Below the pieces are notes generated by a model, which searched no databases, had not been told where the DNA came from, and saw nothing but the letters and a program-made list of their open reading frames with translations. This document shows, in pieces, positions 18,015 through 61,461 of a stretch of 64,000 nucleotides of DNA. Position numbers and translations under genes: made by a program. Numbering within the stretch: position 1 is the first letter of the stretch; the number at the start of each line of letters is the position of its first letter. This DNA comes from an uncultured Gammaproteobacteria bacterium (GTDB lineage Bacteria; Patescibacteriota; Microgenomatia; Levybacterales; UBA12049), in the NCBI GenBank assembly GCA_964521295.1, contig CAZFRF010000001.1, positions 850,066 through 914,065 on the forward strand, in the 5' to 3' direction.

Positions 18015-18029
18015 TTTAAACTTACTGTT

Positions 18030-22055: not shown

Positions 22056-22134
22056 TTAAATAAATGCTACTATTAATATGTATGGTTTTTGCGTATAAGT
22101 CAAGTGGTAATCTGAGGGATAAGTATACCTTGGT

Positions 22135-23145: not shown

Positions 23146-23150
23146 ATTTT

Positions 23151-23900
23151 TTAAAATGTCGGAAACGCGATATAGTTTACTACATTTGTATATAGTCCGG
23201 CGGGTTGGGTTCCTGGAATATTTACCTTATATGTTATCTGAGTTTGTCTATTTTTGCCAACATTTGGACTACTCATAACCAGAACTGCAGAAGGAGAAGC
23301 AGCGAATTGCTTATAAAAAGTTGCGGTTGAGAAGCCAGAGGCACAATCAGTTCCGCTTAAGTTGTCGCATCTATAGCCAAACCCGTATGCAAGTGAGCTT
23401 GTCCAGGCAGCGGCTGTGGTTGTTGTGCAGCTGCCTGCATCGCAGGTAGTTGGTTGGATTTCTGCTCCAGTTGCGTTCACTCTTAGGTTGCGGTTGTTGT
23501 TTACATAGACTCCATAGCCATGACCTGATTCAAAAGATACGGTTAGAGTATTGGTTCTGGTTGTAGGGCTAGTGGGAACGATTACGCCAAAGTTAATAAA
23601 GGTGCTAGAGATAGTAAAAGTAAAGGGAGTAAGGGGGTGAATATATTGAAAACCTGCTTTTACTTTATAATTAGTGCCTGTGAAAAGAAATTGACCGGAT
23701 TCACCGCTAGTTATTGATAATTTATAATTACTTCCGGTTGGTTTACCCGCGAAAGAGTTAAGATTACCCATCTGGATTATATAAGAAGAATTAGACATTG
23801 TTTGAGCAAGGGATTTTGATACAGAAAGTACTAGAAATGTAATAGACAGATATATTATTAGGGTTGCAAATAGGAAGTTTTGCAGCGAATTATTTTTCAT
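23151..23900 (-). CDS. Small secreted protein consisting essentially of one WxL-like domain; it corresponds to the C-terminal half of the ~480-aa paralogs
   Basis: Signal peptide. 'FTFTISSTFINFG...LTVSFESGHGYGVYV' aligns with 'YMTMTISGIANGAS...IQIDTNASYGYTLTA' of the larger proteins. C-terminus '...QPAGLYTNVVNYIAFPTF'. Confidence 0.5.
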   Translation of the reverse strand: MKNNSLQNFLFATLIIYLSITFLVLSVSKSLAQTMSNSSYIIQMGNLNSFAGKPTGSNYKLSITSGESGQFLFTGTNYKVKAGFQYIHPLTPFTFTISSTFINFGVIVPTSPTTRTNTLTVSFESGHGYGVYVNNNRNLRVNATGAEIQPTTCDAGSCTTTTAAAWTSSLAYGFGYRCDNLSGTDCASGFSTATFYKQFAASPSAVLVMSSPNVGKNRQTQITYKVNIPGTQPAGLYTNVVNYIAFPTF

Positions 23901-34086: not shown

Positions 34087-34144
34087 ATCTAATGCTTACC
34101 TAAAGTCTTGACAACCTATTTTTCTTTCTGCAGAATATCTTTAA

Positions 34145-45272: not shown

Positions 45273-45986
45273 ATGAATAATTTTAAAAAAATAAATCTGC
45301 TTGGAATTAGTTTTACAAACGCCACAGAATTAGAAGTCTTAGAGTTTATTAATACAAGCCTAAGAGATAATGCCAAAAAGTATTACATTGTTACCCCAAA
45401 TCCTGAGATTTTGGTAATTGCAGACAAAAATCCGGACTACAAAAGAGTGCTAAATGAAGCAGAATTAGCCTTGGCAGACGGGGTAGGGGTCATAATTGCT
45501 ACAAGACTTATGGGTAATAGGCTTAAACAGCGCATTGCAGGGGTAGATCTGCTCGAAAGTATATGTAGGTACTTTGCCGATAAGCCCGTCACGACAAGCT
45601 ATTTAGGGGCTGGGCCTGGAGTAGCAGAGATTACAGCTGAGCGCTTACAAAAAAAATATACAGGACTTAAAGTTGCATGGACTACCGAGGAGTATTTCGA
45701 TGAATTGTCAACAAAAAAGACAGATATTTTGTTTGTAGCGCTGGGTTCTCCAAAACAAGAATTATGGATAAACAAAAATCTCAACAAACTGAACGCTAAA
45801 ATTGTAATTGGAGTGGGAGGGGCTTTTGATTTTATTTCGGGAAAAGTGCCAAGGGCTCCAAGGTTTTTAAGAAACATAGGTCTTGAGTGGCTTTTTAGAT
45901 TAATTATTCAACCATGGAGAATTACTAGACAATTATCATTAGTTAAATTTATTTTTTTGGTAATTAAACAAAGATTTAAAATTTAA
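45273..45986 (+). CDS. WecG/TagA/CpsF family (GT26) N-acetylmannosaminyl-transferase-like glycosyltransferase
   Basis: 'YIVTPNPEILVIADKNPDY...ADGVGVIIATRLMG...VALGSPKQELWI'. Confidence 0.75.
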   Translation: MNNFKKINLLGISFTNATELEVLEFINTSLRDNAKKYYIVTPNPEILVIADKNPDYKRVLNEAELALADGVGVIIATRLMGNRLKQRIAGVDLLESICRYFADKPVTTSYLGAGPGVAEITAERLQKKYTGLKVAWTTEEYFDELSTKKTDILFVALGSPKQELWINKNLNKLNAKIVIGVGGAFDFISGKVPRAPRFLRNIGLEWLFRLIIQPWRITRQLSLVKFIFLVIKQRFKI

Positions 45987-46880: not shown

Positions 46881-47744
46881 ATGGACTTTAAATTCTTGCA
46901 AGATGATATATCTGGAAAATGGATTGTGTCTGCTCCCAGAAGAGCGAGGCGTCCTAGTGCGACTGGTGGAACAGAAATGTTTTGTCCATTTTGTTACGGT
47001 AGCGAAAAAGAAAACGATGAGTTATATAGGATACCCCAAGAAAATAATTGGAAAGTTAGAGTGATAAAGAATGCCTTTCCTTTTGCATCAGTCCATGAGG
47101 TTATAGTTCATTCTCCGGATCATCATAAAACATTTGATGAGCTCCCATTATCGCAATCTCAGCTTATTTTGGAAACATTTAAAAAACGATACAACGAACA
47201 TGCACAGAAAGGTAGTGTCTATATTTTTAACAATCATGGTGAGGCAGCAGGGGAAAGCCTTCCTCATCCGCACAGTCAACTGGTTGTAATAGGTGATAAT
47301 GTTAAATTGGATTTGCCGCATTATGAGATTGAAGCCAATGAGAAGATAAAAGAAACCGGGTTATTTACGATTTTTGCTCCATATCAGTCTCAATGGCCAG
47401 ATGAAGTTTGGGTGTATCCAAAAAAAAGGAATTCAACGTTTGGAGAGATTAATGAGGAAGAAATTAAAGATTTATCAAAGGTAATATATAGACTTATTCA
47501 GATCATGGATTTAAGACACGGTCATGAGTTTCCTTATAACTTTTATATTTATCCATATAGAGATTGGTATTTTAGACTTGTTCCCAGGATAAAGATAATT
47601 GGTGGTTTTGAAGTTGGTACCAATGTGTTTGTTAATACTCAAGATCCTAAGGAGACAATAGAATTCATAATTGAGCATTTTGATAATCCTGATTTTGAAA
47701 AAATAAAAACACTACATAAGGCTAAATATCATCGATTCTCTTAA
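46881..47744 (+). CDS. GalT-like (HIT superfamily) nucleotidyltransferase / hexose-1-phosphate uridylyltransferase family
   Basis: Zinc knuckle 'CPFCYGSE'. 'LPHPHSQLVVIG' is the HxHxQ active-site motif. Confidence 0.65.
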   Translation: MDFKFLQDDISGKWIVSAPRRARRPSATGGTEMFCPFCYGSEKENDELYRIPQENNWKVRVIKNAFPFASVHEVIVHSPDHHKTFDELPLSQSQLILETFKKRYNEHAQKGSVYIFNNHGEAAGESLPHPHSQLVVIGDNVKLDLPHYEIEANEKIKETGLFTIFAPYQSQWPDEVWVYPKKRNSTFGEINEEEIKDLSKVIYRLIQIMDLRHGHEFPYNFYIYPYRDWYFRLVPRIKIIGGFEVGTNVFVNTQDPKETIEFIIEHFDNPDFEKIKTLHKAKYHRFS

Positions 47745-48115: not shown

Positions 48116-48529
48116 TTATTTCAATTCAACAGTAGCACCAGCTGCTGTTAATTTTTCTTTAGCTTCATCTGCGGTTTTCTTATTAACTGCTGTTAATACT
48201 TCTTTTGGAGCTGAGTCAACTAAAGCTTTAGCTTCGGTTAGACCTAGGGTTGGAACTAATTCTCTTACAGCTTTAATAACTGCAATTTTAGTAGCACCAC
48301 CATTAGTAATAACAACGTTAAATACTGTTTGCTCAGAGGCAGCGTCTCCGCCCTCAGCAGCAGGAGCACTAGCAGCAGGAGCAGCTGCTACCATAGCGGC
48401 AGCGGATACTCCAAATTTTTCTTCTAATGCTTTTACAAATTCCGATAGTTCGAGAACTGACATCTCCTCAACTGCTTTAAGCAATTCTTCGTTAGTTAAT
48501 TTTGCCATATCAATTCTCACCTCCTTCAT
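48116..48529 (-). CDS. rplL: Ribosomal protein L7/L12. The true start is probably the second Met at 48508.
   Basis: '[34 protein letters not shown]...ATVELK'. Confidence 0.9.
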
Positions 48530-49193
48530 TTTTTACTTCTTCATTAGTTTCATTTAGGGCTTGAGTTTCTTCTTTTTTCTCTTCTGTTGTTGTTTCTGGT
48601 TGAGTTGCTTCTACTGCTGGAGTTTCTGTAGCTGCGCTTGCTGCCATTGCTGGTTTTGCTTTCGCAACTGCATTAAGAGTCATAACTAATTTTTGTAAAT
48701 TCCAGTTTAATGCTCTGTGTAATCCAGAAATTGGAGATTTGAGTCCAACTGCAATTTGAGTTAATAATGTTTCTCTTGATGGTAAAGTGGAAAGTTTAAT
48801 AACTTGTTCGCCTGTAATAAAGTTTTTTTCCATTATTCCGAATTTTACGCTTGGTAAATTAAGTTCTTTAATTGTTTTTGCCAATGCTTTTAATGGACTA
48901 ACGATGTCACCATATAAAAATAAAGTGCCTGTAGGGCCTTGTAGTGACAAGTTTTCAGATAGAGTCATTTTATTTTCAGCTAAAGCGATAGTTAAAAGAG
49001 AGTTTTTAGCTACTACGAATTCGGCCTCAAAGGGCTTAATAGCTTTTTTAAGTTCTTCAATTTGTTTGTGGGTAAGGCCTCCGTAGTTTGTAAAAACTAC
49101 TGCATTAGCCTTAGCAAACATATCTGTTAAAACCTGTACGGTTTCAATTTTCTTTTGCTTATTAGCTGTGATTTTTGGTTCTTTGGTATCCAT
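48510..49193 (-). CDS. rplJ: Ribosomal protein L10 with a ~50-aa acidic Thr/Glu-rich C-terminal extension
   Basis: '[23 protein letters not shown]...VVAKNSLL'. Tail '...[40 protein letters not shown]'. Confidence 0.85.
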
Positions 49194-49217
49194 AAAAAAA
49201 CTCGCCCTAAGCGAGTA
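49194..49217 (-). terminator. Hairpin plus U-tract immediately 5' of the rplJ start codon (terminator of the upstream gene and/or leader attenuator)
   Basis: On the minus strand, ACTCGCttaggGCGAGT is followed by TTTTTTT, which abuts the ATG. Confidence 0.5.
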
Positions 49218-49326
49218 AAAGAGCAGATATAGATTGCTCGTTCATTCCTCGACAGGACTTATCTTTGCGCCTGTTGTCTTAGGTAATATGTAGTTTAACA
49301 AATATTTGGTCTTAAGTCAATGCTAA

Positions 49327-49950
49327 TTACTCTCTAATTTTGATCTGCTGCATGGGTCGAGAGTAGGAAATTCCCTGTGAGTGTGCCGCTTGTCTAACTG
49401 CTGCAACCTTAGGATCAATTGAAAAAGTGGGAATTTCAAGGATATCCATTATCGATTTTCCTCTTTGTGTGTTGTGAACAATATGAAATCTTGTAGGTGT
49501 CCATAATACATCTAATTCCTCGGCTGTGGGAGCTTCTGGCTTTTTCCAATTAGGTAGTTGAAAAGTATGTTCTCTACATAATTTTATAATAGAAGGTTGG
49601 TCTGGTCCAAGATCTTCAGGAGGAATGGCTCTGTAATGTAAATCTTCATTAAAAAATACTCCCAATTCTTGCATTGCCATATCTTCTTTTGGATGATGGT
49701 TAGATCTTTCACATATGTCGAGGCCATTATCCACTAATGTCGTAACCGTTAATTGAGCTCTAATTCTTCCTCCCTCAGTCAATATTAAGTCTCCCATGTC
49801 AGCATACCCTTGAGCAATTGCTTCTCGAGCATGGTTTAAAGCGACAACTGCGGAGTTGAATCGTTCAATTGCAGCGTGTGTTTGTCTTGCTTTTGTATCA
49901 ACAAGACTACTGAGCTCTAGATATGGATCTTCTTTTGTTCTTTTGGTCAT
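49327..49950 (-). CDS. Hypothetical 207-aa protein, Ala/Arg/His/Gln-rich
   Basis: ORF only. Composition unlike the flanking ribosomal genes. Confidence 0.4.
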   Translation of the reverse strand: MTKRTKEDPYLELSSLVDTKARQTHAAIERFNSAVVALNHAREAIAQGYADMGDLILTEGGRIRAQLTVTTLVDNGLDICERSNHHPKEDMAMQELGVFFNEDLHYRAIPPEDLGPDQPSIIKLCREHTFQLPNWKKPEAPTAEELDVLWTPTRFHIVHNTQRGKSIMDILEIPTFSIDPKVAAVRQAAHSQGISYSRPMQQIKIRE

Positions 49951-50012
49951 GCGAGGATTTTAGGTATTGGCTTGGGTTTTGTCAATAATTAAGCTATAAT
50001 TAGTGAGATTTT

Positions 50013-50840
50013 ATGTCAAGAACACGTGTTTTACATTTTAACCTCAAAATAAAAGGCCAAAAGGATAAACTGACCTTATTTAGCTTGCCAAAGAGTAATA
50101 AATACCAAACAATTTCTGGTTTAAAATACTCTAAAAAAAACTTTTCAAAAATCATAGAGAAGCAATTTGGTAATGAATTGGTTATTTTAGAAGGTGGTAT
50201 TGAAGCCAATCTTGAATTCAAGGCTGTGTTAAAAAGTATTGACATGCCTATTAAACAAGAACTTAAGAGTAAATTAATCTTCAATGACAAATTTATTAAT
50301 TCTAAAGATATAAAGATAAGAGAGATTGCTAAAAAACTTAAGGGTAAAACATTACAAGACACAATTGCTAATACATATCAATATGTGGTTGATTATCTGG
50401 ATTATGGATATCCATATCAAGGTCTTTATACATATGCTCAATCGCTACGAGACAGGGTAACTGATTGTGGGGGATTTTCAACTTTACTTATGTCTCTATT
50501 GTCTGCTAATAAAATTAATTCAAGACTTGTTGTTGGATTTATATTAAAAGATAACAGAGCAACAAAATTACTCATTAATTTTCCCATAATGCCATTAACT
50601 TTTGATAACTTATATATGCATGTATGGGTAGAAGCTGAGTCTTCTAAAAATTTGTGGCTAACTTTAGATCCGTCACTCGAAAAAAGGAGACAAAAAGGAT
50701 TAACTAAAAGAAAAGGTGGATATGAAAAGCTTCCAGCTGATAGATTAATTACATCTTTTGGACACAATTTGCAAGTGAAAATAAATAATAAAAAAATTAA
50801 TTTTCCAATTGTACAAAATCCTGTGAGTATAAAAATATGA
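50013..50840 (+). CDS. Transglutaminase-like superfamily protein (Cys-His-Asp core)
   Basis: 'VTDCGGFSTLLMSLLSANKINSRLVVGF' holds the Cys. His lies in 'YMHVWVEA'. Asp lies in 'TLDPS'. Confidence 0.6.
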   Translation: MSRTRVLHFNLKIKGQKDKLTLFSLPKSNKYQTISGLKYSKKNFSKIIEKQFGNELVILEGGIEANLEFKAVLKSIDMPIKQELKSKLIFNDKFINSKDIKIREIAKKLKGKTLQDTIANTYQYVVDYLDYGYPYQGLYTYAQSLRDRVTDCGGFSTLLMSLLSANKINSRLVVGFILKDNRATKLLINFPIMPLTFDNLYMHVWVEAESSKNLWLTLDPSLEKRRQKGLTKRKGGYEKLPADRLITSFGHNLQVKINNKKINFPIVQNPVSIKI

Positions 50841-52021
50841 TTTCAACCGACTTTGCATCAAATGAAATGCTAAAAGACGCACTATTGTCTTTTAGCTTGA
50901 TGTTCACACCTTGGGACTGGAATAGTAAAGACCTGTCAAAAGATTTAGAAGCAGAAATAAGTAAGCTTTTGAGGCTAAAAAAAGAAAATATTTTTTTCTT
51001 TTTAACTGGAAGAAGTGCGTTGCTTAATGTTTTTAAAGCATTAGGGCTAAAGGAAAATGAGGGAGTATTGGTGCAAACATTTACTTGCGAGGCTGTAGTT
51101 TTGCCAATTTTACATTTAAAATTAATCCCACAGTACGTAGATATAGAAAAAGATACCTTTTCTATGGATTTAAATAGCTTAAAAAAAAGAATTACTAAAA
51201 ATAGTAGGGTTTTGGTATTGCAAAGTACATTCGGTTTAAGGCCAAAATATAAAGACGCGATACTAAGAATAGCAAAACAACATAAATTAATTGTCGTAGA
51301 GGATTTAGCACATGGTTTTAGTAAGGAAAACCTAGTAGAAAATACTATAAAGATTGTTTCATTTGGTAGGTCTAAATCTTTCTCATCAGTTTGGGGAGGA
51401 GCAATGATCTGTAAAGATAAAAATATTGTAAATGCAATCCAAATATTAAATAATGAGTTAAAAGATCCCTCATATATTTTCATACTACAAGCTTTGTTTT
51501 ATAAACAGTTTTCTGTGTTAATTAAATCGACATACGACATTTTATTGGGAAAATTTTTGCACAAGTTGATTGGACAAAAAATTCTCAGTAAAGAAATAAC
51601 AAATATTGAAAAAAAAATGCGTTTTGATGAGGCATTGAATAAAAAGTATCCCGCAGTTTTTGCGAAGCTTTTATGGCTACAGTTGAAAGACCAAGATGCT
51701 ATTAGGATGCAAAGAGAAAAGATAACAATTCTATATTCTAAATATTTTAAAAATGATTACAAAGGATCTTTGATTAGATATCCAGTTTTGGTTAAAAATC
51801 CTACTAAGCTTTTATCAATTTTAGCTTCAAAAAATATATTTTTGGGTAACTGGTATAATGATGTGATTGCGCCAAAAAATTTGAACTTATTAAAGCTTTT
51901 ATATAAAAAGGGTGCATGTCCCAATGCGGAAGATATAACTAGACATATTATTAATTTGCCAACTTTAATTTCAGAAAATAAAGCTAAATATATTCTTAAA
52001 TTAATTCATGATAACAGTTAA
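50837..52021 (+). CDS. DegT/DnrJ/EryC1/StrS family PLP-dependent (sugar) aminotransferase
   Basis: 'LIVVEDLAHGF' and 'VSFGRSKSFSSVWGGAMI' (Lys region). 4-bp overlap with the upstream gene. Confidence 0.6.
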   Translation: MISTDFASNEMLKDALLSFSLMFTPWDWNSKDLSKDLEAEISKLLRLKKENIFFFLTGRSALLNVFKALGLKENEGVLVQTFTCEAVVLPILHLKLIPQYVDIEKDTFSMDLNSLKKRITKNSRVLVLQSTFGLRPKYKDAILRIAKQHKLIVVEDLAHGFSKENLVENTIKIVSFGRSKSFSSVWGGAMICKDKNIVNAIQILNNELKDPSYIFILQALFYKQFSVLIKSTYDILLGKFLHKLIGQKILSKEITNIEKKMRFDEALNKKYPAVFAKLLWLQLKDQDAIRMQREKITILYSKYFKNDYKGSLIRYPVLVKNPTKLLSILASKNIFLGNWYNDVIAPKNLNLLKLLYKKGACPNAEDITRHIINLPTLISENKAKYILKLIHDNS

Positions 52022-53021
52022 AGAAATACAGAACCAAAAAACTTGGGATAACTTTTACAATCAATATGGCGAAGAAACATTCTTGCAGTCTTGGGAATGG
52101 GGATTTTTGCAAGAAAGTATAGGAAATATTCCTTTACGATTAGGTGTTTATGATGATAAAAGTTTAAAGGCAATTGTGCAGGTGTTAAAAGTCAAAGCTC
52201 AGAGGGGAAACTTTTTATTTGTTCCACATGGTCCCTTAACAAAGACTAGCTCGATATATTTAAAACAAATTTTAAAATATTTACATTTAATTGCTAAAAA
52301 AGAAGGATATTTGCACCTAAGAGTGGCTCCAATTTTAGAAAAAACATCTCAAAATAAGTCAATATTTTCTAAAGCTGGTTTTAAAAAGGCAGCAACTCAC
52401 ATGCATGCCGAAAACGTATGGATTTTAGACCTTGCTAAGTCAGAGGAAGAGCTCTTGCAGAGTATGCGCAAGACAACCCGGTATTTAATTAGAAAGGCTA
52501 TTAAGGAAGAAGTGGTAATTGAAAAAATTTCAGATATTTCAGCTTTAAATAAATTTTGGAAAGTGTATGAAAAAACAGTTGAAAGAGAAAATTTTACGCC
52601 ATTTTCCAAAGAATTTATAAAAAAAGAATTTGAAGCTTTTAATAGTACTGGAAATGCGATTTTTCTCTTAGGTAGAGAGAAGGATTCCAATAAGATATTA
52701 GCTGCAGCTTTAATTATATTTAATAAAAAAACAGGGTTTTACCATCAGGGAGCATCTTTGCATAGCAAGGTCCCAGTAGCATATCTTTTGCAGTGGGAAG
52801 CTATTCTTGAGGCTAAAAAAAGAGGCTGTTTATATTATAATTTTTGGGGAATTGCACCAGATGAAAATCCTAAGCATCCTTGGTATGGGTTAACTTTATT
52901 TAAAAAAGGATTTAATGGATTCCAGAAAGATTATTTAGATACTCAAGATTATATATTTTCCCCTTTATATTATGCGACATACATTTATGAAAGATTAGTT
53001 AAGTGGAAAAGGAATTTGTAG
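52008..53021 (+). CDS. FemAB-family (tRNA-dependent aminoacyl/peptidyl-transferase-like) protein
   Basis: 'WDNFYNQYGEETFLQSWEWGFLQE', 'FVPHGPL', 'YHQGASLH...AYLLQWEAILEAKKRGCLYYNFWGI' follow the FemAB pattern. 14-bp overlap with the upstream gene. Confidence 0.55.
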   Translation: MITVKEIQNQKTWDNFYNQYGEETFLQSWEWGFLQESIGNIPLRLGVYDDKSLKAIVQVLKVKAQRGNFLFVPHGPLTKTSSIYLKQILKYLHLIAKKEGYLHLRVAPILEKTSQNKSIFSKAGFKKAATHMHAENVWILDLAKSEEELLQSMRKTTRYLIRKAIKEEVVIEKISDISALNKFWKVYEKTVERENFTPFSKEFIKKEFEAFNSTGNAIFLLGREKDSNKILAAALIIFNKKTGFYHQGASLHSKVPVAYLLQWEAILEAKKRGCLYYNFWGIAPDENPKHPWYGLTLFKKGFNGFQKDYLDTQDYIFSPLYYATYIYERLVKWKRNL

Positions 53022-53075
53022 TTGACAACTCTACGATAGATATAATATTATTTCATGAAAGCTTCCCAAATTTAG

Positions 53076-54101
53076 ATGAGATCTAATCAAGAAACCGCAG
53101 CTGTTATTGGATCAGGCGTAATTGGCCTAACCACAGCTCTTGAAGCCCAAAGAGCAGGTTTTAGGCGGGTAAAAATATATACAGAAAAACCTCCATTATC
53201 CACAACTTCAGTTAAAGCGGGTGCAGTTTTTGAGCCTTATGAGCCTGGTAGGCTGGATGTTGCTACGATAAATAGATTTGTAACTGTAGGAATGCAAAGA
53301 TATGAGGAGATAGTCGATGATCATCCAGAAAGCGAAACTGGAATAAGGATGCATGATTTATATATTGCATCACACGCTCCAATGGATACTGAAAGATACT
53401 CTTTTTTAGATGTATTACCCTCTAGGCCATCATATTTACACGCAGTCAGTGATAGAGTGCCTGGTGATTATTCACATGCAATTAAAGTTGAAGTACCAAT
53501 GATTGATCCAAATTTCGCATTACCGTGGCTAGTTGGAAAATTTGTTAATCAGGGTGGAGATATAGCATCTTTTCAAAAAATAGAAAATATCGACCAGTTT
53601 TTAAGAGACGTCCCGGAAAGAGTAGTTTTTAACTGTTCAGGGTTGGGCGCACGCGAGTTAATTGGAGATACTGAGCTTACTCCTGTAAGAGGTCAAATTG
53701 CAGTAGCAAGGTATTCAAGGCCTGGATATGATTATTCAGTTTTAGGAGACGATGCATTTTATGCATTTCCTAGGCAAGCGCAGGTCGTTTTAGGTGGCTC
53801 GATCGAAAGGGGTCAAGAGGAAGAATCAACAACGGAAAGAATAAATGAAATAATTGAACATGCAAGGCTAATTATTCCTGATTTGAAAAATTCAGATATA
53901 GTCCTAACATATGCTGGGTTAAGGCCATTTAGAGCATCTGGCCCCAGAATTGAGATAGACGATAGGGTAATCGGTAAAACCCATGTAGTTAATACTGGAT
54001 TTGGTGGTTCAGGATGGACATTTTGCTTTGGAGCCGCAGAAAAAGCAGTTGGATTAGTAAGGCCACATGATTATGCGATGCCAGTACCTCAGGCTGCATA
54101 A
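53076..54101 (+). CDS. FAD-dependent oxidoreductase of the D-amino-acid oxidase / glycine oxidase family
   Basis: Rossmann 'AVIGSGVIGLTTALEAQRAGFRRVKIY'. DAO-like length and layout. Confidence 0.65.
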   Translation: MRSNQETAAVIGSGVIGLTTALEAQRAGFRRVKIYTEKPPLSTTSVKAGAVFEPYEPGRLDVATINRFVTVGMQRYEEIVDDHPESETGIRMHDLYIASHAPMDTERYSFLDVLPSRPSYLHAVSDRVPGDYSHAIKVEVPMIDPNFALPWLVGKFVNQGGDIASFQKIENIDQFLRDVPERVVFNCSGLGARELIGDTELTPVRGQIAVARYSRPGYDYSVLGDDAFYAFPRQAQVVLGGSIERGQEEESTTERINEIIEHARLIIPDLKNSDIVLTYAGLRPFRASGPRIEIDDRVIGKTHVVNTGFGGSGWTFCFGAAEKAVGLVRPHDYAMPVPQAA

Positions 54102-54152
54102 AATATATCCTATAATATTTACTTTATATTCTCATTTTGGTATAATTAATTC

Positions 54153-55688
54153 ATGGAAAGACCAAGATTTATCAATCCAGAAGTAGCTAGAGATATTACA
54201 CCTAGATTGACTGGTATAGAGCCCGATAATGGAACCTTAAGAAGGGCAATTCAGATTAAAAATGCTGTTGTTGCAACCAGTGAATCTTTGGGGATGCAAC
54301 CCTTTTCTGTAGTAAAAGAAATAAGGCTCGCTAATGCTTCTGCTCCAGATCAAGCACGGGCAATAGAAAAAGAAAGAGTTGAAAAATTTGCTTATGTAGG
54401 AGACATCCATGGTTTTACTCCTCAAAAACAAGCAGAAATAGAAGAACCATTGCTTACAGGTAATTTCGATCAAATATTTTTTACTGGAGATATTGGTGGT
54501 TCTGATCTATTAGCAAAATTACAGAAATTATTCTACCAAGGTGGCAATACTGGAAATGTAAGTTTAATGTGGAATAGATATAAGCAATTAGCTCAACAAG
54601 CTCAGCAAAATGGAGATCAAATTAGCGATGAAGTTATGCTTACAGAATTAAGAGAAGGATATTTAAATATAGCTTCTTTTGAAAAAACATTGATAGATCA
54701 ATCTTTGTCTGAGGAAAAAGCGAGAGAACAAGTTGTTGAAATGTCAGATGTAGAGATAGTTGCAGATATAAAAAGAATTGTTTCTCATGTACATTTTGGT
54801 CACTACGTAGCTGATTTACCAGAGGAAGCAATTGACAGATTAGCTCAGGATGTTAGGGGAAATTATGAAAGATTTGCTGATTTTGTGGGTGCGATAAAAG
54901 ATCAAACAGGCGCAGATGTTTTTGTTGCAGAAGGAAATTGGGATGCAAGACTTCCTTTTGATTTTAGAAGAGGTACTGAAAAACCAGAGCCGCTTCCAAT
55001 TAAGGAAAGAAGATTTTATGGCGCTGATATTTTAAGAGCAAAAGGCGTCAGTTTCATAACTGAACCAACAATTGTTGCATCGGATACAGCTTTACATTTA
55101 GTATTGCCTTTTGACTCATTAGCTAAGCCAGCAGATCCAGATTTAGTTAAAACATTGTTTTTAGATGCTGCAAGTAAAGCAGGAAGAAGAGAGGTTTTGA
55201 CAGTTGGTCATGCAGTTTTATCTTGGGATGCTCATGGAAATACAACTCCTACTAAAGAAGGAGAAACAACAACAGCTAATTTTCGAGATTGGATTCAAAT
55301 CTTTAGGCCATCACAGGCAATTACTGGACACGAACATTTTCCATTAAAAGATAGAGATGGAAATAATGCTCCAAATATTAAATATGGAATTAAGATAGAT
55401 AGTTCGGGAGAGGCTGATGTTGCTCCATATTTATCACCTGATGTCTTAAACTCAATTGATGATATTAGGGTTGAATTAGCTAGGGAAAGAGAAGCTACAT
55501 CATTTGAGATTGCAGTGCCTACGATTGTAAGTCCTGTTCCAATGTCAGATCAATTAACAGGCTCAAGAATCGCTCATACTGAGCTACTTAGAGATTTGGG
55601 ACCACAACAAAATAGGAATGAAATTAGAGGAAGAGGTGGAAAAGCATCTCCAGTAAGAGTTGATTTACCTGTTAACAATATTTCTTAA
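54153..55688 (+). CDS. Calcineurin-like metallophosphoesterase domain protein (511 aa)
   Basis: 'YVGDIHG', 'FTGDIGG', 'AEGNWD', 'TGHEH' phosphoesterase motifs. Confidence 0.6.
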   Translation: MERPRFINPEVARDITPRLTGIEPDNGTLRRAIQIKNAVVATSESLGMQPFSVVKEIRLANASAPDQARAIEKERVEKFAYVGDIHGFTPQKQAEIEEPLLTGNFDQIFFTGDIGGSDLLAKLQKLFYQGGNTGNVSLMWNRYKQLAQQAQQNGDQISDEVMLTELREGYLNIASFEKTLIDQSLSEEKAREQVVEMSDVEIVADIKRIVSHVHFGHYVADLPEEAIDRLAQDVRGNYERFADFVGAIKDQTGADVFVAEGNWDARLPFDFRRGTEKPEPLPIKERRFYGADILRAKGVSFITEPTIVASDTALHLVLPFDSLAKPADPDLVKTLFLDAASKAGRREVLTVGHAVLSWDAHGNTTPTKEGETTTANFRDWIQIFRPSQAITGHEHFPLKDRDGNNAPNIKYGIKIDSSGEADVAPYLSPDVLNSIDDIRVELAREREATSFEIAVPTIVSPVPMSDQLTGSRIAHTELLRDLGPQQNRNEIRGRGGKASPVRVDLPVNNIS

Positions 55689-56498
55689 TTACCTATAATT
55701 TCCTCTATATTTTTCAGGTAAAAGTTTAGCCAGTCGTTGCATCATAATTTCCGTTGGAGTAATTCCAGGATTTTGTTCTGCAACTCGCTCTAAGTCTGCA
55801 AAAGAAAAAGGTGTTCCAGGAACAACTAAAACATCGTCAATAAAGGGTCTTATGCGACCTGATTCAGGTAAGACAATTGCAACAGGCATTGCTAAGCCGA
55901 TTTCTCCTGAATTTTTCAAGGGACCATGAATTTCAAGTGGTGGTTCTTGTAAAATACCATCACTGTGTCTGGTGCCTTCTATTGCAGCAAATAGTACGTT
56001 ACCTGGGGTTTGCATAACCTCTCTGGTTTGTTTTAAGGCTTCCACATTGAAAGATCTTGCAGAGAGACCATGAGTTGATTCAGTGGGCTTAGGATATGAA
56101 GCCATATCATTTGGTTGAATAACTAGGATTTTAGTTAATCCAGTATATCCTTCAACTAAATTGGTAGCCGTTCGAGTTATTGAGCCACTTTCTGGTCTTT
56201 GAGGATCATAATGTTTTAGACCCGCTATTCCATAGACGTTTTCTAGATCAGTTAAATATCTATTAGCAAATCTTGCTGAAATTACTGGATCGAATGCGCT
56301 AACATGGTTCATATAGACATATAAAGATCTTGGGTTATCTTGAAAAACTCCTTCGCCATGAAGAGCATCTTTTGCAATATGAGTAGAGAATGCACGTTTT
56401 TCATCTACGTGAAATTTAACAGCTCTTGTGGCAAGCCATAAAGCTCTTCCTAGAGTTTGCTCAGCAGTAGTTTTTCTTAACTGTCTAAGTCTTTCCAT
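55689..56498 (-). CDS. PlsC/LPLAT-family acyltransferase
   Basis: 'NHVSAFDP' (HX4D) and 'AIEGTRHSDG' (EGTR block). Confidence 0.65.
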   Translation of the reverse strand: MERLRQLRKTTAEQTLGRALWLATRAVKFHVDEKRAFSTHIAKDALHGEGVFQDNPRSLYVYMNHVSAFDPVISARFANRYLTDLENVYGIAGLKHYDPQRPESGSITRTATNLVEGYTGLTKILVIQPNDMASYPKPTESTHGLSARSFNVEALKQTREVMQTPGNVLFAAIEGTRHSDGILQEPPLEIHGPLKNSGEIGLAMPVAIVLPESGRIRPFIDDVLVVPGTPFSFADLERVAEQNPGITPTEIMMQRLAKLLPEKYRGNYR

Positions 56499-56538
56499 AG
56501 ATTTGGATAATAGTTTATAAGAGGAAGTTAGTCAAGAA

Positions 56539-57333
56539 TTAGACTCTAACTTTAACACCAGGAGACATTGTGGATTTTAAGGTGATATTTAAGATATTAG
56601 CTTTTTTAACTGCATCAAGCATTACCGTGATGTTTTCAGCTAATTTTTCTGATCCAAATGACATTTTGCCAACTGAAAGATGAAGAAGTGGATTTTTAGA
56701 TTCTGTTTTAAAATTAAATTGTCCACCCGCATATTTCTTAGCAGCTTCTTCAGGTTTTTCGGTAATAGTTCCGTTTTTGGGATTTGGCATTAAGCCTTTT
56801 GGTCCTAAAACTCTAGCAACCTTTGCAAGTTTAGGCATCATTTGCGGAACAGCAAGTAAAATATCAAAATTAACTACACCTTTTTCAATTTCAGCAAGTA
56901 ATTTGTCATCTGCAATAGCTACTCTGGTTTGTTTTCCAGTTCCGTGGGGAAGAGTTATGCTACCTGAAATACCAGGAGTAGTTGTGTTAATGTGCAATTC
57001 AACTGTTTCATCAAATTTACCTCTTTGTAAATCTTTTAAGAGTTCTAAAGCTTCTTTAACTGTGTATGTTTTTGTTAAATCTACTTTTGCTGCGAGGGAG
57101 TTATATTTCTGTGAATGAATTGCTTTTGTATCTTTTTTAGAAACAGTTTCTTTTTTTTCAGTTTTTACTTCTTCTACTTTTTCTTCAGCTGGTGCAGTTT
57201 CTTCTACAATTGCTTCTACTTGAGCTTTTGCTTTTTCTTCAGCAATCTTAGCTTCTTTTTTCTTTTGAAGCTCTAATTGTTGTTTTTTTTCTAATTCTTC
57301 GTCTCCTAAAGTTTTTACTCTAATTTTTCCCAT
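56539..57333 (-). CDS. rplA: Ribosomal protein L1 with a ~60-aa Lys/Glu-rich N-terminal extension
   Basis: Core '...KYNSLAAKVDLTKTYTVKEALELLKD...GKQTRVAIA...GPKGLMPNPK'. The extension is unusual. Confidence 0.85.
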   Translation of the reverse strand: MGKIRVKTLGDEELEKKQQLELQKKKEAKIAEEKAKAQVEAIVEETAPAEEKVEEVKTEKKETVSKKDTKAIHSQKYNSLAAKVDLTKTYTVKEALELLKDLQRGKFDETVELHINTTTPGISGSITLPHGTGKQTRVAIADDKLLAEIEKGVVNFDILLAVPQMMPKLAKVARVLGPKGLMPNPKNGTITEKPEEAAKKYAGGQFNFKTESKNPLLHLSVGKMSFGSEKLAENITVMLDAVKKANILNITLKSTMSPGVKVRV

Positions 57334-57334
57334 A

Positions 57335-57757
57335 TTATTGTACTTTTACGCCCATTGAGCGAGCTACTCCTTCCACAATTTTTACTGCTGGTTCTAATTC
57401 ATCTGTATTTAAATCTTCCATTTTGTTTTTCGCAATTTCTTCAGCTTGAGCCCTAGATAGGGTGCCAGCAACTTCAGTTCCAGGTTTACCAGCGCCTTTT
57501 TCTTTACCTAACGCTTTTTTAATCATTTCAGCAATAGGAGATTTTTTAACGATGAAAGAAAAAGTTCTATCTTCATAAACTGTAATAACAGCAGGAACGA
57601 TTGTGCCTTTTTGATCAGCTGTTTTATCATTAAATGCCTTAACGAACTCCATAATAGGGAGTCCATGGGGTCCCAATGCTGTTCCAACAGGTGGCGCAGG
57701 AGTTGCTGCTCCAGCTGGAATATTAATTTTAATTAATGTTTTAATTTTCTTTGCCAT
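57335..57757 (-). CDS. rplK: Ribosomal protein L11
   Basis: 'IPAGAATPAPPVGTALGPHGLPIMEFVKAFN'. Confidence 0.95.
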   Translation of the reverse strand: MAKKIKTLIKINIPAGAATPAPPVGTALGPHGLPIMEFVKAFNDKTADQKGTIVPAVITVYEDRTFSFIVKKSPIAEMIKKALGKEKGAGKPGTEVAGTLSRAQAEEIAKNKMEDLNTDELEPAVKIVEGVARSMGVKVQ

Positions 57758-57856
57758 ATTTTTCTTTGGGACTATGTAGAGAAGTTACTCTTGCGAGGTT
57801 CTTATCTACTGGTTCAAGCGACTTATGTCTCCCAGATTAACAATAAGTTGTCTGTA

Positions 57857-58624
57857 TTATATCTTACTTACTTGTAAAAAGTCTAGTTCAACTGGTGTTT
57901 CTCTTCCGAAAATAGAAACTAAGACCTTTAATTTACCTTTTGCTTCATCAATCGTATCGATTGTTCCTAAGAAATCAGAGAATGGTCCATCAACAATTTT
58001 TACAGCTTCACCAGTTGTAAATGAAGTTGTATATAATGGTTGTTCTGATTGCATAAACTTTTGAATTGCTTCAACTTCTTTTTCAGAAATAGGAGTTGGC
58101 TTGTTGCCAGCGCCGATAAAAGCAGTTACTCCTTGAGTTGTTCTGACTAAAAGCCAGGATTCATCATCAAGAATCATTTTTACTAATACGTATCCTGGGA
58201 AGATCTTTTCTTTAACATTTTCTTTTTTGCCTTGTGCAACTTTTACTGTATCTCTAGTTGGAACAATGATGTCAAAAATTCTAGTTTCAAATCCCATTGA
58301 TTCAACTCTTTGATGAAGTGATTTTGCAACTTTATTTTCATGTCCTGAATAAGTGTGGACGATATACCATTTTGCATCATCAGCAGGTGAATGTGGCTTG
58401 TCTTCTACGGGAGTTGGTGCTTGCTCCTCTTGTGTAGCTTCTTCAGCTTGATCATGTAAAGCTTCAGCTGAAGCTTCTTCTTGGGCTTCTCCTTCTGTCT
58501 TTATTTCCTCTGAAGTAGGTGTTACTTCCAGCTCAGTATTTGCTTCTTCCACGACATCAGTTGCTGGCTCTGCAGCTACTTGTTCTTCTTGTACATCTTG
58601 TAAATTTTTTGTATCGTCTATCAT
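57857..58624 (-). CDS. nusG: Transcription antiterminator NusG with a ~90-aa acidic N-terminal extension
   Basis: NGN 'KWYIVHTYSGHENKV'. KOW 'GEAVKIVDGPFSDFLGTIDTID'. Confidence 0.9.
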   Translation of the reverse strand: MIDDTKNLQDVQEEQVAAEPATDVVEEANTELEVTPTSEEIKTEGEAQEEASAEALHDQAEEATQEEQAPTPVEDKPHSPADDAKWYIVHTYSGHENKVAKSLHQRVESMGFETRIFDIIVPTRDTVKVAQGKKENVKEKIFPGYVLVKMILDDESWLLVRTTQGVTAFIGAGNKPTPISEKEVEAIQKFMQSEQPLYTTSFTTGEAVKIVDGPFSDFLGTIDTIDEAKGKLKVLVSIFGRETPVELDFLQVSKI

Positions 58625-58966: not shown

Positions 58967-59857
58967 ATGGCAAAGATTAGAAAAGCAGTTATCCCCGCAG
59001 CTGGTTTTGGAACCAGATTTTTACCTCAAACTAAAGCAATGCCCAAGGAAATGCTTCCAATTGTTGATAAGCCTGTTATTCAGTATGTTGTTGAAGAGTT
59101 AGTAGGAGCAGGAATTACAGATATAATTTTAGTAACGGGATATCATAAGAGAACAATTGAAGATCATTTTGATGCCGCAAATTTAGATTTACTTGAAAAC
59201 TTAAGAATGGGTGGAGAAAAGAAAAAACCACTTCTTGAACAAGTTGAGGAAATTTCTTCCCTTGCAAACTTTATCTATGTAAGGCAAAAAGGACCATATG
59301 GAAATGGAACTCCTCTTATGAACGTAAGACATTTAATTGGCAATGAGCCTTTTATTTATGCTTTCTCTGATGACTTTATCGTTGCTGAGCCTTCAAGATT
59401 TAAGCAAATGATTGAATTATATGAGAAATATAATTGTTCTGTTTTGGGAAGCGTAAAAGCAACCAAAGATGAAGATTATGATAGATATGGTTTTGCTGGC
59501 GGAGAGGAAATAGAGCCTGGAGTAATTGATACAAAAGTTATTATTGAGAAGCCTGGTAAGAACGCAGCGCCATCTGATCTGGCTAATGTTTCAGGGTTTT
59601 TGTTTACTCCAGATATTTTTGAATACCTTGAAAAAATAATGGAAGATTTAAGAGAGGGTGAAGAATTCTATTATAATGATGCCCTAAAGAGAATGTTGTC
59701 TGATGGTAAAAGAATTTTAGCAGCTGAAATTAAAGGCGGAAGATATTATGATACAGGCAATAAGCTTGAATACATGAAAACTGTTGTAGAGCTAGGACTT
59801 AAAAACGAAGATATTAAAGACGAATTCAAAAAATTCCTCGAGAGTTTAAATATCTAA
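58967..59857 (+). CDS. galU: UTP--glucose-1-phosphate uridylyltransferase
   Basis: 'KAVIPAAGFGTRFLPQTKAMPKEMLPIVDKPVIQYVVEE'. Confidence 0.9.
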   Translation: MAKIRKAVIPAAGFGTRFLPQTKAMPKEMLPIVDKPVIQYVVEELVGAGITDIILVTGYHKRTIEDHFDAANLDLLENLRMGGEKKKPLLEQVEEISSLANFIYVRQKGPYGNGTPLMNVRHLIGNEPFIYAFSDDFIVAEPSRFKQMIELYEKYNCSVLGSVKATKDEDYDRYGFAGGEEIEPGVIDTKVIIEKPGKNAAPSDLANVSGFLFTPDIFEYLEKIMEDLREGEEFYYNDALKRMLSDGKRILAAEIKGGRYYDTGNKLEYMKTVVELGLKNEDIKDEFKKFLESLNI

Positions 59858-60836: not shown

Positions 60837-60911
60837 GCCGTCTTAGCTCAGTGGTAGAGCAGCTGTTTTGTAAACAGCAGGTCGTCAGTTCAAGTCTGAC
60901 AGACGGCTCCA
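60837..60911 (+). tRNA. tRNA-Thr (anticodon TGT), CCA encoded
   Basis: Acceptor GCCGTCT/AGACGGC, D GCTC/GAGC, anticodon stem GCTGT/ACAGC with loop tTTGTAa, T stem GTCAG/CTGAC, loop TTCAAGT. Confidence 0.9.
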
Positions 60912-60996
60912 GCTGAGGTGGCGGAGTAGTCAATCGCTCGTGACTGTAGATCACGCGACCGGAAGGTCTACGGGAGTGCAAATCTCTCCCTCAGCA
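60912..60996 (+). tRNA. tRNA-Tyr (anticodon GTA), type II with a long variable arm
   Basis: Acceptor GCTGAGG/CCTCAGC. Anticodon stem CGTGA/TCACG with loop cTGTAga. Variable hairpin GACC-GGAA-GGTC. T loop TGCAAAT has the unusual G55. Confidence 0.8.
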
Positions 60997-61005
60997 CAGT
61001 TTTGT

Positions 61006-61077
61006 GCCGGCTTGGCTCAGTGGTAGAGCAAGTCATTGGTAATGACTAGATCGTGGGTCCGATTCCCACAGCCGGCT
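61006..61077 (+). tRNA. tRNA-Thr (anticodon GGT)
   Basis: Acceptor GCCGGCT/AGCCGGC. Anticodon stem AGTCA/TGACT with loop tTGGTaa. T stem GTGGG/CCCAC with loop TCCGATT (C55). Confidence 0.85.
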
Positions 61078-61119
61078 CAAGGTTGAATTAAGCTCAAGTT
61101 TTTTATATAATACATTCCT

Positions 61120-61296
61120 ATGGCAAAAAAAGGCGAACACAGAGTAACAGTTGGATTAGTATGTACTGTTTGTAAAAACAGGAATTATGTCACGTCAAGA
61201 AATAAATTAAATACAGTTGAAAAACTGCTTTTAAAGAAATTCTGCAGACACTGCAGAAAGATTACGGATCACAAAGAAAACGAAAAGTTGAAATAA
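61120..61296 (+). CDS. rpmG: Ribosomal protein L33 (58 aa; below the ORF-track size cutoff)
   Basis: Manual translation MAKKGEHRVTVGLVCTVCKNRNYVTSRNKLNTVEKLLLKKFCRHCRKITDHKENEKLK has the two CxxC pairs typical of L33. Confidence 0.85.
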   Translation: MAKKGEHRVTVGLVCTVCKNRNYVTSRNKLNTVEKLLLKKFCRHCRKITDHKENEKLK

Positions 61297-61312
61297 CTTC
61301 CTCTTTGCAAGT

Positions 61313-61340
61313 TGATAGCACATATTCCTTAAGGTATAAT
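61313..61340 (+). promoter_or_regulatory. Promoter TTGATA, 17-bp spacer, TATAAT, driving tRNA-Trp
   Basis: ttgataGCACATATTCCTTAAGGtataat, ending 12 bp before the tRNA 5' end. Confidence 0.55.
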
Positions 61341-61351
61341 TTACGTGACGA

Positions 61352-61422
61352 AGGGATGTGGTGAAATGGTATCACAGCAGTCTCCAAAACTGCTTTTCAC
61401 AGTTCGAATCTGTGCGTCCCTG
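61352..61422 (+). tRNA. tRNA-Trp (anticodon CCA)
   Basis: Acceptor AGGGATG/CGTCCCT. D GTGA/TCAC. Anticodon stem GCAGT/ACTGC with loop cTCCAaa. T stem CACAG/CTGTG with loop TTCGAAT. Confidence 0.85.
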
Positions 61423-61461
61423 CAGCATTGAAAATATTTTAAGGAGTAGTATAATCCACCA

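Follow-up and report, generated by a model that had tools for sequence, protein, structure and literature searches.

A DegT-like PLP enzyme coupled to a FemX-like transferase in Patescibacteria: a probable module for tailoring cell-wall precursors

In a stretch of 64,000 nucleotides (the window) from a Patescibacteria (CPR) bacterium near Roizmanbacteria, three overlapping genes encode a transglutaminase-like (TG) protein, a DegT-like PLP enzyme and a Fem-like transferase, which together probably tailor cell-wall precursors. We give about an even chance (roughly 0.5) to the reading that this module is the peptidoglycan side-chain (Fem) system as CPR have it, with all three genes in a single translationally coupled operon. 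The locus is a real and typical member of a widespread and apparently uncharacterised Fem-system variant, and a literature search found no description of DegT and Fem coupling in CPR. An earlier note on this DNA had proposed the synthesis and aminoacylation of an amino sugar or cell-wall precursor. That interpretation is partly supported: a cell-envelope precursor handled by Fem, PLP and Cys-His-Asp enzymes stands, whereas the making of an amino sugar followed by its aminoacylation is not supported by the gene context.

The three genes lie on the + strand exactly where they had been placed before, and their lengths agree with those of their homologues. They and the features around them are as follows.

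50013-50840, + strand: transglutaminase-like Cys-His-Asp protein, 275 aa, cytoplasmic (Pfam Transglut_core)
50837-52021, + strand: divergent DegT/DnrJ/EryC1/StrS-family PLP enzyme, 394 aa (Pfam DegT_DnrJ_EryC1)
52008-53021, + strand: FemABX-family, FemX-like predicted aminoacyl-tRNA-dependent transferase, 337 aa, without coiled-coil insert (Pfam FemAB)
49951-50012: divergent intergenic region, 62 bp, between hyp207 (- strand) and the operon
53022-53051, + strand: promoter-like site, TTGACA-18-TATTAT, scoring 11/12 in the scan, directly 3´ of the Fem stop codon
41516-42265: sortase
45273-45986: WecG/TagA
46881-47744: GalT-like gene
58967-59857: GalU-like NTP_transferase

The first overlap is an ATGA of 4 bp (50837-50840) shared by the TG and DegT-like genes, and the second is 14 bp long (52008-52021) and links the DegT-like to the Fem-like gene, as the earlier note had it. 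In the divergent intergenic region, TATAAT can be read on the + strand at 49995-50000; the promoter scan of this region scored no + strand site and one strong site on the - strand (TTGACA-17-TAAAAT, 11/12, from 49985 to 49957). The promoter-like site behind the Fem-like gene marks the 3´ boundary of the module, and the DAO-family gene behind it forms a unit of its own, specific to this lineage. This oxidoreductase (53076-54101) was considered as the missing oxidase partner and was rejected as a core part of the module, since it is absent from the nearest relative (L002) and from every other locus and has its own strong promoter-like site. A 511-aa gene is likewise missing from L002. Antisense ORFs inside the operon, such as one of 228 aa at 50797-51483, were treated as by-products of the Lys/Asn/Ile-rich composition of the coding strand. 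The GC content of 29% at 50-52 kb, compared with a window mean of 36%, raised the possibility of recent horizontal transfer, which was rejected because third-position GC in this block (0.21-0.25) is within the range of its neighbours (0.16-0.30) and because the block is also found, at comparable divergence, in L002. The GalU, GalT-like, TagA-like and sortase genes are present in the window as previously listed, and were discarded as pathway partners because they are conserved neighbours of the module in no related locus.

All three proteins exceed the gathering cut-offs of the Pfam families to which their types had been assigned. The TG protein matches Transglut_core (PF01841; 47.2 bits, cut-off 23, E 3e-12), and its residues C152, H203 and D219 do not vary among 40 homologues, in agreement with the Cys-His-Asp enzyme suggested before. 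With this family match and the triad in the core fold, the protein belongs to the transglutaminase-like superfamily. An N-terminal beta-sandwich precedes the transglutaminase core, and the AF2 model has a pLDDT of 94. A sequence search against the PDB returned zero matches; Foldseek with the model retrieved 3ISR, an uncharacterised putative cysteine protease, as the best match, together with the cores of TgpA and TG2/3.

The DegT-like protein matches DegT_DnrJ_EryC1 (PF01041; 90.8 bits, cut-off 19.8, E 1.4e-25) over profile positions 27-200 of 360 only, that is, in the N-terminal half. Its family numbers 1354 representatives at E <= 1e-30, and canonical DegT enzymes can be aligned to the family profile only at positions 56-208 and 272-394. 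A family-specific insert of approximately 60 aa with invariant charged residues is found at about residues 210-270. D156 and K180, the latter in SFGRSK, are invariant across the family, and the AF2 model (pLDDT 91) shows the fold of type I PLP enzymes, in which K180 is the Schiff-base Lys and D156 faces the pyridine nitrogen. By Foldseek, its structural relatives include ArnB and perosamine synthase (identity 15-19%, TM ~0.71, probability 1.0).

The Fem-like protein matches FemAB (PF02388; 116.8 bits, cut-off 24, E 1.4e-33). Comparison of its family profile with known structures places the family nearest to bona fide peptidoglycan Fem enzymes, with S. aureus FemX as the closest (6SNR; 6.6e-28, full length), then FemA (1LRZ; 3.3e-13) and Weissella FemX (8e-8); natural-product tRNA-dependent peptide synthases are matched much more weakly than S. 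aureus FemX (2.4e-6). Profile positions 7-327 can be aligned to 6SNR, 1LRZ and 4II9, which predicts a double-GNAT architecture. In the alignment, F298-K299 corresponds to F304-K305 of Weissella FemX (FemX_Wv), including the catalytic Lys, and this pair is at least 90% conserved among 82 members and invariant among 23. The score against the NCBIfam FemX equivalog (NF047883, UDP-MurNAc-pentapeptide-lysine N6-alanyltransferase) is 38.1 bits and the cut-off 500, so its match to Weissella FemX falls below the level of an orthologue; the FemAB assignment thus holds for the Pfam family and not for this equivalog. R211 of FemX_Wv, which we take to be the residue binding UDP-MurNAc-pentapeptide, is not conserved.

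The genomic context in relatives was examined in other CPR species, at 65 informative loci with at least 4 kb of upstream sequence each; in species representatives, 583 Fem loci were confirmed. In 60/65 of the informative loci the Fem-like gene has a DegT-like gene upstream of it, and of 42 directly adjacent pairs 20 overlap. The typical order is (LysRS-SerRS)-[ABH-MurF-like or TG]-DegT-Fem-FtsQ, where ABH is an alpha/beta-hydrolase, so that in CPR relatives the pair occupies the usual position of ddl, between murF and ftsQ. In 18 loci the TG-like gene immediately precedes the DegT-like gene, and in 12 the two overlap. Because the same three-gene order, overlapping or near-adjacent, recurs in many CPR species, the arrangement is not due to chance. 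The slot ahead of the DegT-like gene holds TG in 16 loci and the ABH and MurF-like pair in 43, and TG and ABH occur together in none of the 65 (Fisher p = 1e-10); the two kinds of loci are interleaved on the Fem tree. Some loci carry extra Fem paralogues, as in multi-step bridge synthesis. In the window, the module is placed between rplA and rplJ and adjoins neither murF nor ftsQ. Fem-like genes without a nearby DegT-like partner are found in three Nealsonbacteria loci and in the cultivated CPR bacterium Southlakia, showing that Fem does not always need this partner; Fem-family genes were scored as essential in Southlakia (PMC10633639 supplementary table).

Gene fusions join the same partners. 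Among the best 150 of the 1354 DegT-like representatives, five are DegT::FemAB fusions, and two more DegT::Fem fusions were seen among the loci (L027 and L057). A third candidate (L024) was dismissed as an artefact, its ORF crossing a run of N. One Transglut_core::DegT fusion (P0421) and one Mur_ligase::DegT, that is MurF::DegT, fusion (P0461, seen in two assemblies) complete the set.

The products that the earlier note had left side by side were a peptidoglycan cross-bridge, a teichoic-acid-like modification and an aminoacylated glycoconjugate. Peptidoglycan is favoured over the other two because relatives have the pair flanked by a MurF-like ligase and FtsQ, because fusions join the DegT-like domain to MurF and to Fem, and because the nearest kin of the Fem-like protein is the lipid II FemX of S. 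aureus. In the proposed mechanism, the FemX-like enzyme would move an amino acid from aminoacyl-tRNA onto a free amine of the precursor that MurF makes for peptidoglycan; this donor and acceptor are suggested by the MurF and FtsQ neighbours and by the MurF::DegT fusion next to Fem. The acceptor may be UDP-MurNAc-pentapeptide or lipid II, the simplest site being the side-chain amine of the third stem-peptide residue, and the resulting branch could serve cross-linking and sortase anchoring. The DegT-like enzyme would be a dedicated partner performing amine/carbonyl chemistry on the same precursor pathway. Our best guess is that it epimerises or transaminates the free alpha-amino group of the residue delivered by tRNA, and it would make no free amino sugar. 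The thiol enzyme TG may provide an acyl-transfer or hydrolytic step, such as trimming, proofreading or amide exchange, a step that the alpha/beta-hydrolase would carry out in most other CPR lineages. Membrane or signal segments are predicted in none of the three proteins, which fits with cytoplasmic precursor chemistry. We counted the sortase in the window in favour of a peptidoglycan side chain. Counted against are the conservative gene order of CPR, in which genes as unrelated as YbaB can sit in the cluster, the loss of the FemX_Wv arginine and the missed FemX cut-off, the sugar- and cyclitol-specific precedents for DegT enzymes, the placement of the present module away from murF and ftsQ, and the CPR that have Fem without a DegT-like partner.

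An alternative is a sugar route, in which an NDP-keto-sugar or keto-cyclitol would be aminated by the DegT-like enzyme and the sugar amine then aminoacylated from aminoacyl-tRNA by the Fem-like enzyme, giving an aminoacylated wall or surface glycan. The protein is of the DegT family by sequence and fold and keeps the Schiff-base Lys, all of its PDB relatives are sugar or cyclitol aminotransferases, and there are precedents in Orf11, a Fem-like enzyme that glycylates an amino sugar, and in DhpH, where a PLP enzyme makes the amine that a Fem-like enzyme acylates (PMC12945691). A 240-aa protein (c12) encoded between the DegT-like and Fem-like genes in 18 Paceibacterota loci would also fit, its only match being a sub-threshold one to the sugar dehydratase TIM-barrel UxuA (E 0.0011). 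However, a 4,6-dehydratase, SDR or Gfo/Idh/MocA oxidoreductase is absent from the conserved neighbours at the 65 loci, no keto-sugar-forming dehydratase or oxidoreductase lies beside the module in the window, and the canonical CPR DegT of Southlakia does adjoin its dehydrogenase (SEML1_0887/0888). Because a keto-sugar-forming enzyme is not conserved nearby, we favour tailoring of a peptidoglycan precursor over a free amino-sugar pathway. NCBIfam sugar-aminotransferase equivalogs score at most 55 bits against cut-offs of at least 375 (the best being the LegC family, 54.9 bits compared with 420), divergence and the insert are found in the substrate-side half of the protein, and the partners by fusion and linkage are MurF and FtsQ, not glycosyltransferases. 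Taken together, we regard the sugar route as unlikely. That the three genes are neighbours merely through conserved CPR synteny and share no function draws on the presence of YbaB and aminoacyl-tRNA synthetases, which are unrelated, in the same gene order; it is hard to reconcile with a DegT-like domain in three kinds of fusion, with start/stop overlaps in dozens of species and with a trio that was kept together on moving into the ribosomal-protein cluster in this lineage, and we find it most improbable. A small-molecule peptide pathway of the DhpH/PacB type, natural-product-like and unrelated to the wall, agrees with the PLP-domain::Fem-domain architecture of DhpH (PMC12945691) and with the weak PDB matches to tRNA-dependent peptide synthases, but hundreds of CPR species with minimal genomes carry the module, amid housekeeping genes and with other biosynthetic genes absent, which makes such a pathway barely conceivable.

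Two further readings concern D-amino acids. The DegT-like enzyme might replace alanine racemase or D-amino-acid transaminase and feed D-Ala or D-Glu to the Mur ligases, with the Fem-like protein an ordinary FemX linked to it only through the shared pathway. The MurF::DegT fusion parallels the bifunctional MurF/alanine racemase (NF008897), verified probes of E. coli Alr and DdlB had no tBLASTn match in 1.14 Mb of CPR neighbourhoods, and the gene table of Southlakia names no racemase and no Ddl. However, the tBLASTn negatives span only the neighbourhoods of 80 CPR loci plus the window and say little about whole genomes, and Southlakia is also without the DegT-like gene, so that this cannot be a general CPR solution. 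Frequent DegT::Fem fusions and the link to TG would be left unexplained, and we know of no DegT-family racemase or amino-acid transaminase. Such a supply role is thus quite doubtful. One more speculative possibility, prompted by the position of the pair where ddl usually lies, is that it carries out tRNA-dependent, PLP-assisted formation of wall peptide bonds containing D-residues. In one version, the PLP enzyme would epimerise the aminoacyl moiety or the N-terminal residue and Fem would form the bond, replacing alanine racemase and D-Ala-D-Ala ligase; in the other, the pair would build a D-amino-acid cross-bridge starting from L-aminoacyl-tRNA. The negative Alr and DdlB probing, the essential Fem genes of Southlakia, where Alr and Ddl are unnamed, and the MurF::DegT fusion are compatible with it, and we consider either version a long shot. 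For alanine racemase or ddl in CPR, the literature search brought up no relevant paper.

Patescibacteria account for much of bacterial diversity and have minimal genomes, and because most of them cannot be grown, very little is known of their cell-wall chemistry. The module is kept in many CPR lineages, and a PLP enzyme tied by operon overlap and by fusion to a Fem transferase and to MurF suggests that a step in the making of their peptidoglycan precursors has yet to be described. Solving the module would define the structure of the CPR wall, which is the substrate of sortases and a target of host or phage enzymes, would widen the known chemistry of the DegT and Fem families, and would explain why a thiol TG-like enzyme and a serine alpha/beta-hydrolase can take each other's place in the pathway. 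As the proteins are small and soluble, the question is directly approachable in vitro.

Each component of the module resembles, and departs from, a known system. The Fem-like protein shares the double-GNAT FemABX fold, in a full-length alignment, with S. aureus FemX/FmhB (lipid II:glycine glycyltransferase, 6SNR) and Weissella viridescens FemX (1NE9/4II9). Like the latter, it is about 335 aa long and lacks the coiled-coil insert, and in relatives it has a cell-wall gene context. Unlike in these systems, its gene is tightly coupled, and sometimes fused, to that of a DegT-like PLP enzyme, a feature of no characterised Fem system to our knowledge. The DegT-like protein has the fold-type I PLP fold of the DegT/DnrJ/EryC1/StrS sugar aminotransferases (ArnB, PseC, perosamine synthase, QdtB and Gln:scyllo-inosose aminotransferases), and its Schiff-base Lys and PLP-binding Asp stand in the motifs usual for these enzymes. 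It differs from them in its SFGRSK motif, in the GRS that replaces the usual G-T/S phosphate loop, and in having MurF, Fem and TG as partners in place of a keto-sugar-forming neighbour; every characterised DegT-family enzyme that we know of works on keto-sugars or cyclitols, none on peptides. The TG protein shares the Cys-His-Asp transglutaminase core with bacterial transglutaminase-like cysteine proteases (3ISR, TgpA and the pseudomurein endoisopeptidase PeiP) and, with 3ISR, the N-terminal beta domain. The similarity is ~12% identity and TM 0.58 at best, and, in contrast to these proteases, the TG protein is cytoplasmic and is encoded in, or sometimes fused into, a Fem/PLP module. Like the bifunctional MurF/alanine racemase, P0461 joins a MurF-type Mur ligase to a PLP enzyme, of fold-type I and DegT-like in P0461 and a fold-type III racemase in NF008897. 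DhpH (dehydrophos), Orf11 (BD-12) and VlmA are Fem-like tRNA-dependent enzymes with an equivalent catalytic Lys, and DhpH has the same N-to-C order of PLP and Fem-like domains as the DegT::Fem relatives (PMC12945691). In the window these domains are encoded by separate overlapping genes. The three enzymes belong to secondary-metabolite clusters of Streptomyces, whereas the CPR module is housekeeping-like and CPR-wide, with ribosomal proteins as neighbours in the window and, in other loci, MurF, FtsQ and aminoacyl-tRNA synthetases, and its Fem part is nearer to the peptidoglycan Fem enzymes.

Three overlapping genes, encoding a transglutaminase-like (TG-like) protein, a DegT-like PLP enzyme and a Fem-like transferase, sit in the midst of the usually contiguous nusG-rplK-rplA/rplJ-rplL cluster, in the opposite orientation to it. 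Each of the three proteins has its homologues almost exclusively in Candidatus Roizmanbacteria, Microgenomates and other Patescibacteria (CPR), which identifies the source of the window as a CPR bacterium.

Features of the module and its surroundings in the window (L002, nearest related locus)
48116-49301, minus strand, L10 leader and genes for L10 and L12
49327-49950, minus strand, hyp207 gene, absent in L002
50013-50840, plus strand, TG-like ORF, 275 aa
50837-52021, plus strand, DegT-like ORF, 394 aa
52008-53021, plus strand, Fem-like ORF, 337 aa
53076-54101, DAO-family oxidoreductase gene, absent in L002
54153-55688, metallophosphoesterase-like gene, 511 aa, absent in L002
56539-58624, minus strand, genes for NusG, L11 and L1

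The overlapping operon described in the earlier note is correct in every particular: the TG-like and DegT-like ORFs have ATGA in common (4 bp), and the DegT-like and Fem-like ORFs overlap by 14 bp. Its domain calls hold as well, with Pfam scores above the curated cut-offs for Transglut_core (47.2 bits), DegT_DnrJ_EryC1 (90.8 bits, covering only profile positions 27-200 of 360) and FemAB (116.8 bits; Acetyltransf_6 is also matched), and the GalU, GalT-like, TagA-like GT26 and sortase genes that it placed in the same window are all present. A match of the third protein to Fem/FemX profiles was borne out at the level of Pfam FemAB, but the NCBIfam FemX equivalog was missed (38 bits against a cut-off of 500). 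The NCBIfam scan gave no equivalog-level match for any of the three proteins, the best sugar-aminotransferase model reaching 55 bits against 420 with the DegT-like protein, and none of them has membrane-like segments. A near-perfect hairpin (50869-50896; 11-pair stem, 6-nt loop) lies some 30 nt into the DegT-like ORF; a terminator scan flagged it on both strands, and it lacks a good T-run.

All three enzymes appear intact. C152, H203 and D219 of the TG-like family are invariant in 40 homologues, as are E155-D156, H159 and S175-x-G177-R178-x-K180 of the DegT-like family (40 homologues), in which K180 is the Schiff-base lysine. F298-K299 of the Fem-like protein, conserved among 82 family members, aligns to the catalytic F304-K305 of Weissella FemX, where a catalytic role has been described for K305 (PMC12945691). 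The DegT-like family profile aligns to canonical DegT enzymes at positions 56-208 and 272-394 only, which leaves a family-specific insert of ~60 residues with invariant K223, E253, E258 and K259.

Across 48116-58624 the ribosomal-protein cluster is split by the module together with hyp207, the DAO-family gene, the 511-aa gene and a 269-aa gene. L002 (Fem 87% and L10 90% identical) has the same insertion without hyp207, the DAO-family gene and the 511-aa gene, and a strong promoter-like site immediately follows the Fem stop codon, ahead of the DAO gene; we therefore place all three genes outside the module. The Rfam L10 leader match (49186-49301) sits right at its threshold (44.3 against 44). 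The low GC of the module block (29-32%) reflects amino-acid composition rather than foreign codon usage, since third-position GC is ordinary. The locus is a typical, unexceptional member of its family, displaced into a ribosomal-protein cluster.

Elsewhere in the window, the minus strand carries a single stop-free frame (2-16603) that is at least 5534 codons long and continues beyond the window start: a giant gene of over 16.6 kb for a genome of about 0.94 Mb. It is followed by a minus-strand run of ORFs (17115-23900; 482, 329, 480 and 336 aa) with no Pfam match at E <= 1e-5. Two adjacent large proteins (31639-36658; 815 and 837 aa) both have a C-terminal CBM96 carbohydrate-binding module, and one of them also has a GH26-like region. 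Downstream of a PAP2 phosphatase gene is a compact tRNA cluster (60837-61423; Thr-Tyr-Thr, then Trp).

Scanning GTDB at one genome per species yielded at least 583 confirmed Fem-like loci. The best 80 were analysed with 8-kb flanks by clustering neighbouring ORFs and scanning cluster representatives with Pfam and NCBIfam. Sixty-five of these 80 have 4 kb or more of upstream sequence, and in 60 of the 65 a DegT-like gene lies within 6 kb upstream of Fem on the same strand; the two genes are directly adjacent in 42 loci and overlap in 20 of these 42. The recurrent order is LysRS, SerRS, either an alpha/beta-hydrolase (ABH) plus a MurF-like ligase or the TG-like protein, then DegT-like, Fem-like and FtsQ. 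The ligase has MurF (TIGR01143) as its best model, although its 195-216 bits fall short of the 288.6 cut-off. In 44 of 56 such ligases (L003 5381-6664, L026 4053-5765 and 42 other loci) at least three hydrophobic TM-like N-terminal segments stand in for domain 1 of ordinary MurF; membrane anchoring would be unusual for a MurF. Five have no TM-like segment, including those of the transglutaminase-type loci L004, L021 and L023 (411-413 aa). In Paceibacterota, YbaB/EbfC and a conserved 240-aa protein are inserted between DegT-like and Fem-like (L026 7017-7999 and 17 other loci), the latter having UxuA as its sole, sub-threshold match (E 0.0011). Many TPA MAG records (L002, L004, L007, L009 and others) are titled 'uncultured Gammaproteobacteria bacterium', 'Candidatus Methylomirabilis' or 'Weeksellaceae'; with typical CPR gene content and CPR-like proteins, they look like mislabels or mis-binned contigs.

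The TG-like gene occurs in 16 of the 65 loci and ABH in 43, and the two never occur together (Fisher p = 1e-10, a statistic that ignores phylogeny). The swap occurred repeatedly, as both types are interleaved within both major clades of a neighbour-joining tree of Fem proteins. The three-gene form of the window is a minority but recurrent version, found in Microgenomates-like, Uhrbacteria-like and Sungbacteria-like genomes. A profile search of 1.84 billion representatives gave 1354 DegT-like family members at E <= 1e-30. The best 150 of these include five DegT::FemAB fusions (742-769 aa), one Transglut_core::DegT fusion (P0421) and one Mur_ligase_M/C::DegT fusion (P0461). Two sequencing runs gave independent assemblies of this last fusion, which lies in a hydrolase-[MurF::DegT]-Fem context. 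Two more DegT::Fem fusions occur among the GTDB loci (L027, L057); a third candidate, L024, was a masked-base artefact. Synteny alone would not yield such fusions, and they are strong evidence for the DegT-like enzyme acting together with Fem, MurF and the TG-like enzyme.

We give about even odds (0.5) to the module being a Fem system for peptidoglycan precursors. Most simply, Fem would be a FemX-type enzyme placing the first side-chain residue on the precursor, because its closest relatives are bona fide peptidoglycan Fem enzymes, because most CPR have it embedded between murF and ftsQ, because some loci carry extra paralogues, and because a supplementary table for the cultivated CPR bacterium Southlakia epibionticum scores Fem-family genes as essential in Tn-seq (PMC10633639). 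The paralogues in question (L049 2425-3408; L068 2300-3307) are divergent, 29-30% identical, and belong to the same cluster, where they lie upstream of the MurF-like gene. Gram-positive sortases use the peptidoglycan side-chain branch as acceptor, and the sortase in the window might likewise take a Fem-made branch. The TG-like thiol enzyme could be an interchangeable hydrolase or acyl-transferase. For the DegT-like partner, the textbook reading, taken up in the earlier note, is that it makes an amino sugar which Fem then aminoacylates. The conserved neighbourhood, however, is without a keto-sugar-forming enzyme, whereas a canonical CPR DegT adjoins its dehydrogenase (Southlakia SEML1_0887/0888); the protein diverges in its substrate-side half, it misses every equivalog model, and its fusion partners are MurF and Fem. 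From these four observations we prefer a PLP reaction within the peptide precursor pathway itself. The enzyme may act on the residue delivered by tRNA, at its free alpha-amine, or it may supply a D-amino acid, for which bifunctional MurF/alanine-racemase enzymes (NF008897) are a precedent; any single reaction is improbable taken by itself.

A more radical proposal is that peptide bonds with D-residues would be made by a tRNA-dependent route assisted by PLP. The position directly upstream of ftsQ, which in many bacteria belongs to ddl, is occupied in the CPR loci by DegT-like and Fem-like, and E. coli DdlB and Alr probes, both verified against PDB, had no tBLASTn match in the neighbourhoods covered (the window and 84 loci, 1.14 Mb). 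By product name, the gene table of Southlakia, a Saccharibacterium, (supplementary files 1 and 2) lists MurE, MurF, MraY, PBPs and two essential Fem-family genes, with no racemase or D-alanine--D-alanine ligase among the products listed (PMC10633639). This makes the route conceivable, but the negative evidence covers neighbourhoods and product names only and Southlakia also lacks this DegT-like gene, and we consider it a long shot.

The individual families are already known, and database labels exist for the genes by family. Our literature search found no paper on how a divergent DegT-like PLP enzyme is coupled to Fem and MurF across the CPR, on its fusions with Fem, MurF or TG, or on the TG-like/hydrolase alternation. 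The module is widespread, we infer its function, and the biochemical question that it poses is well defined and can be tested. Among known systems, S. aureus FemX gives the strongest match to the Fem family profile (6.6e-28; full length minus the coiled-coil), ahead of FemA (3.3e-13) and Weissella FemX (8e-8); natural-product tRNA-dependent peptide synthases reach only 2.4e-6. The confident AlphaFold model of the DegT-like protein (pLDDT 91) has ArnB, perosamine synthase, WbpE and QdtB as its best solved relatives, at 15-19% identity and a TM of about 0.71. That of the TG-like protein (pLDDT 94), an N-terminal beta-sandwich with a transglutaminase core, best matches 3ISR, an uncharacterised putative cysteine protease, with the pseudomurein endoisopeptidase PeiP ranking lower.
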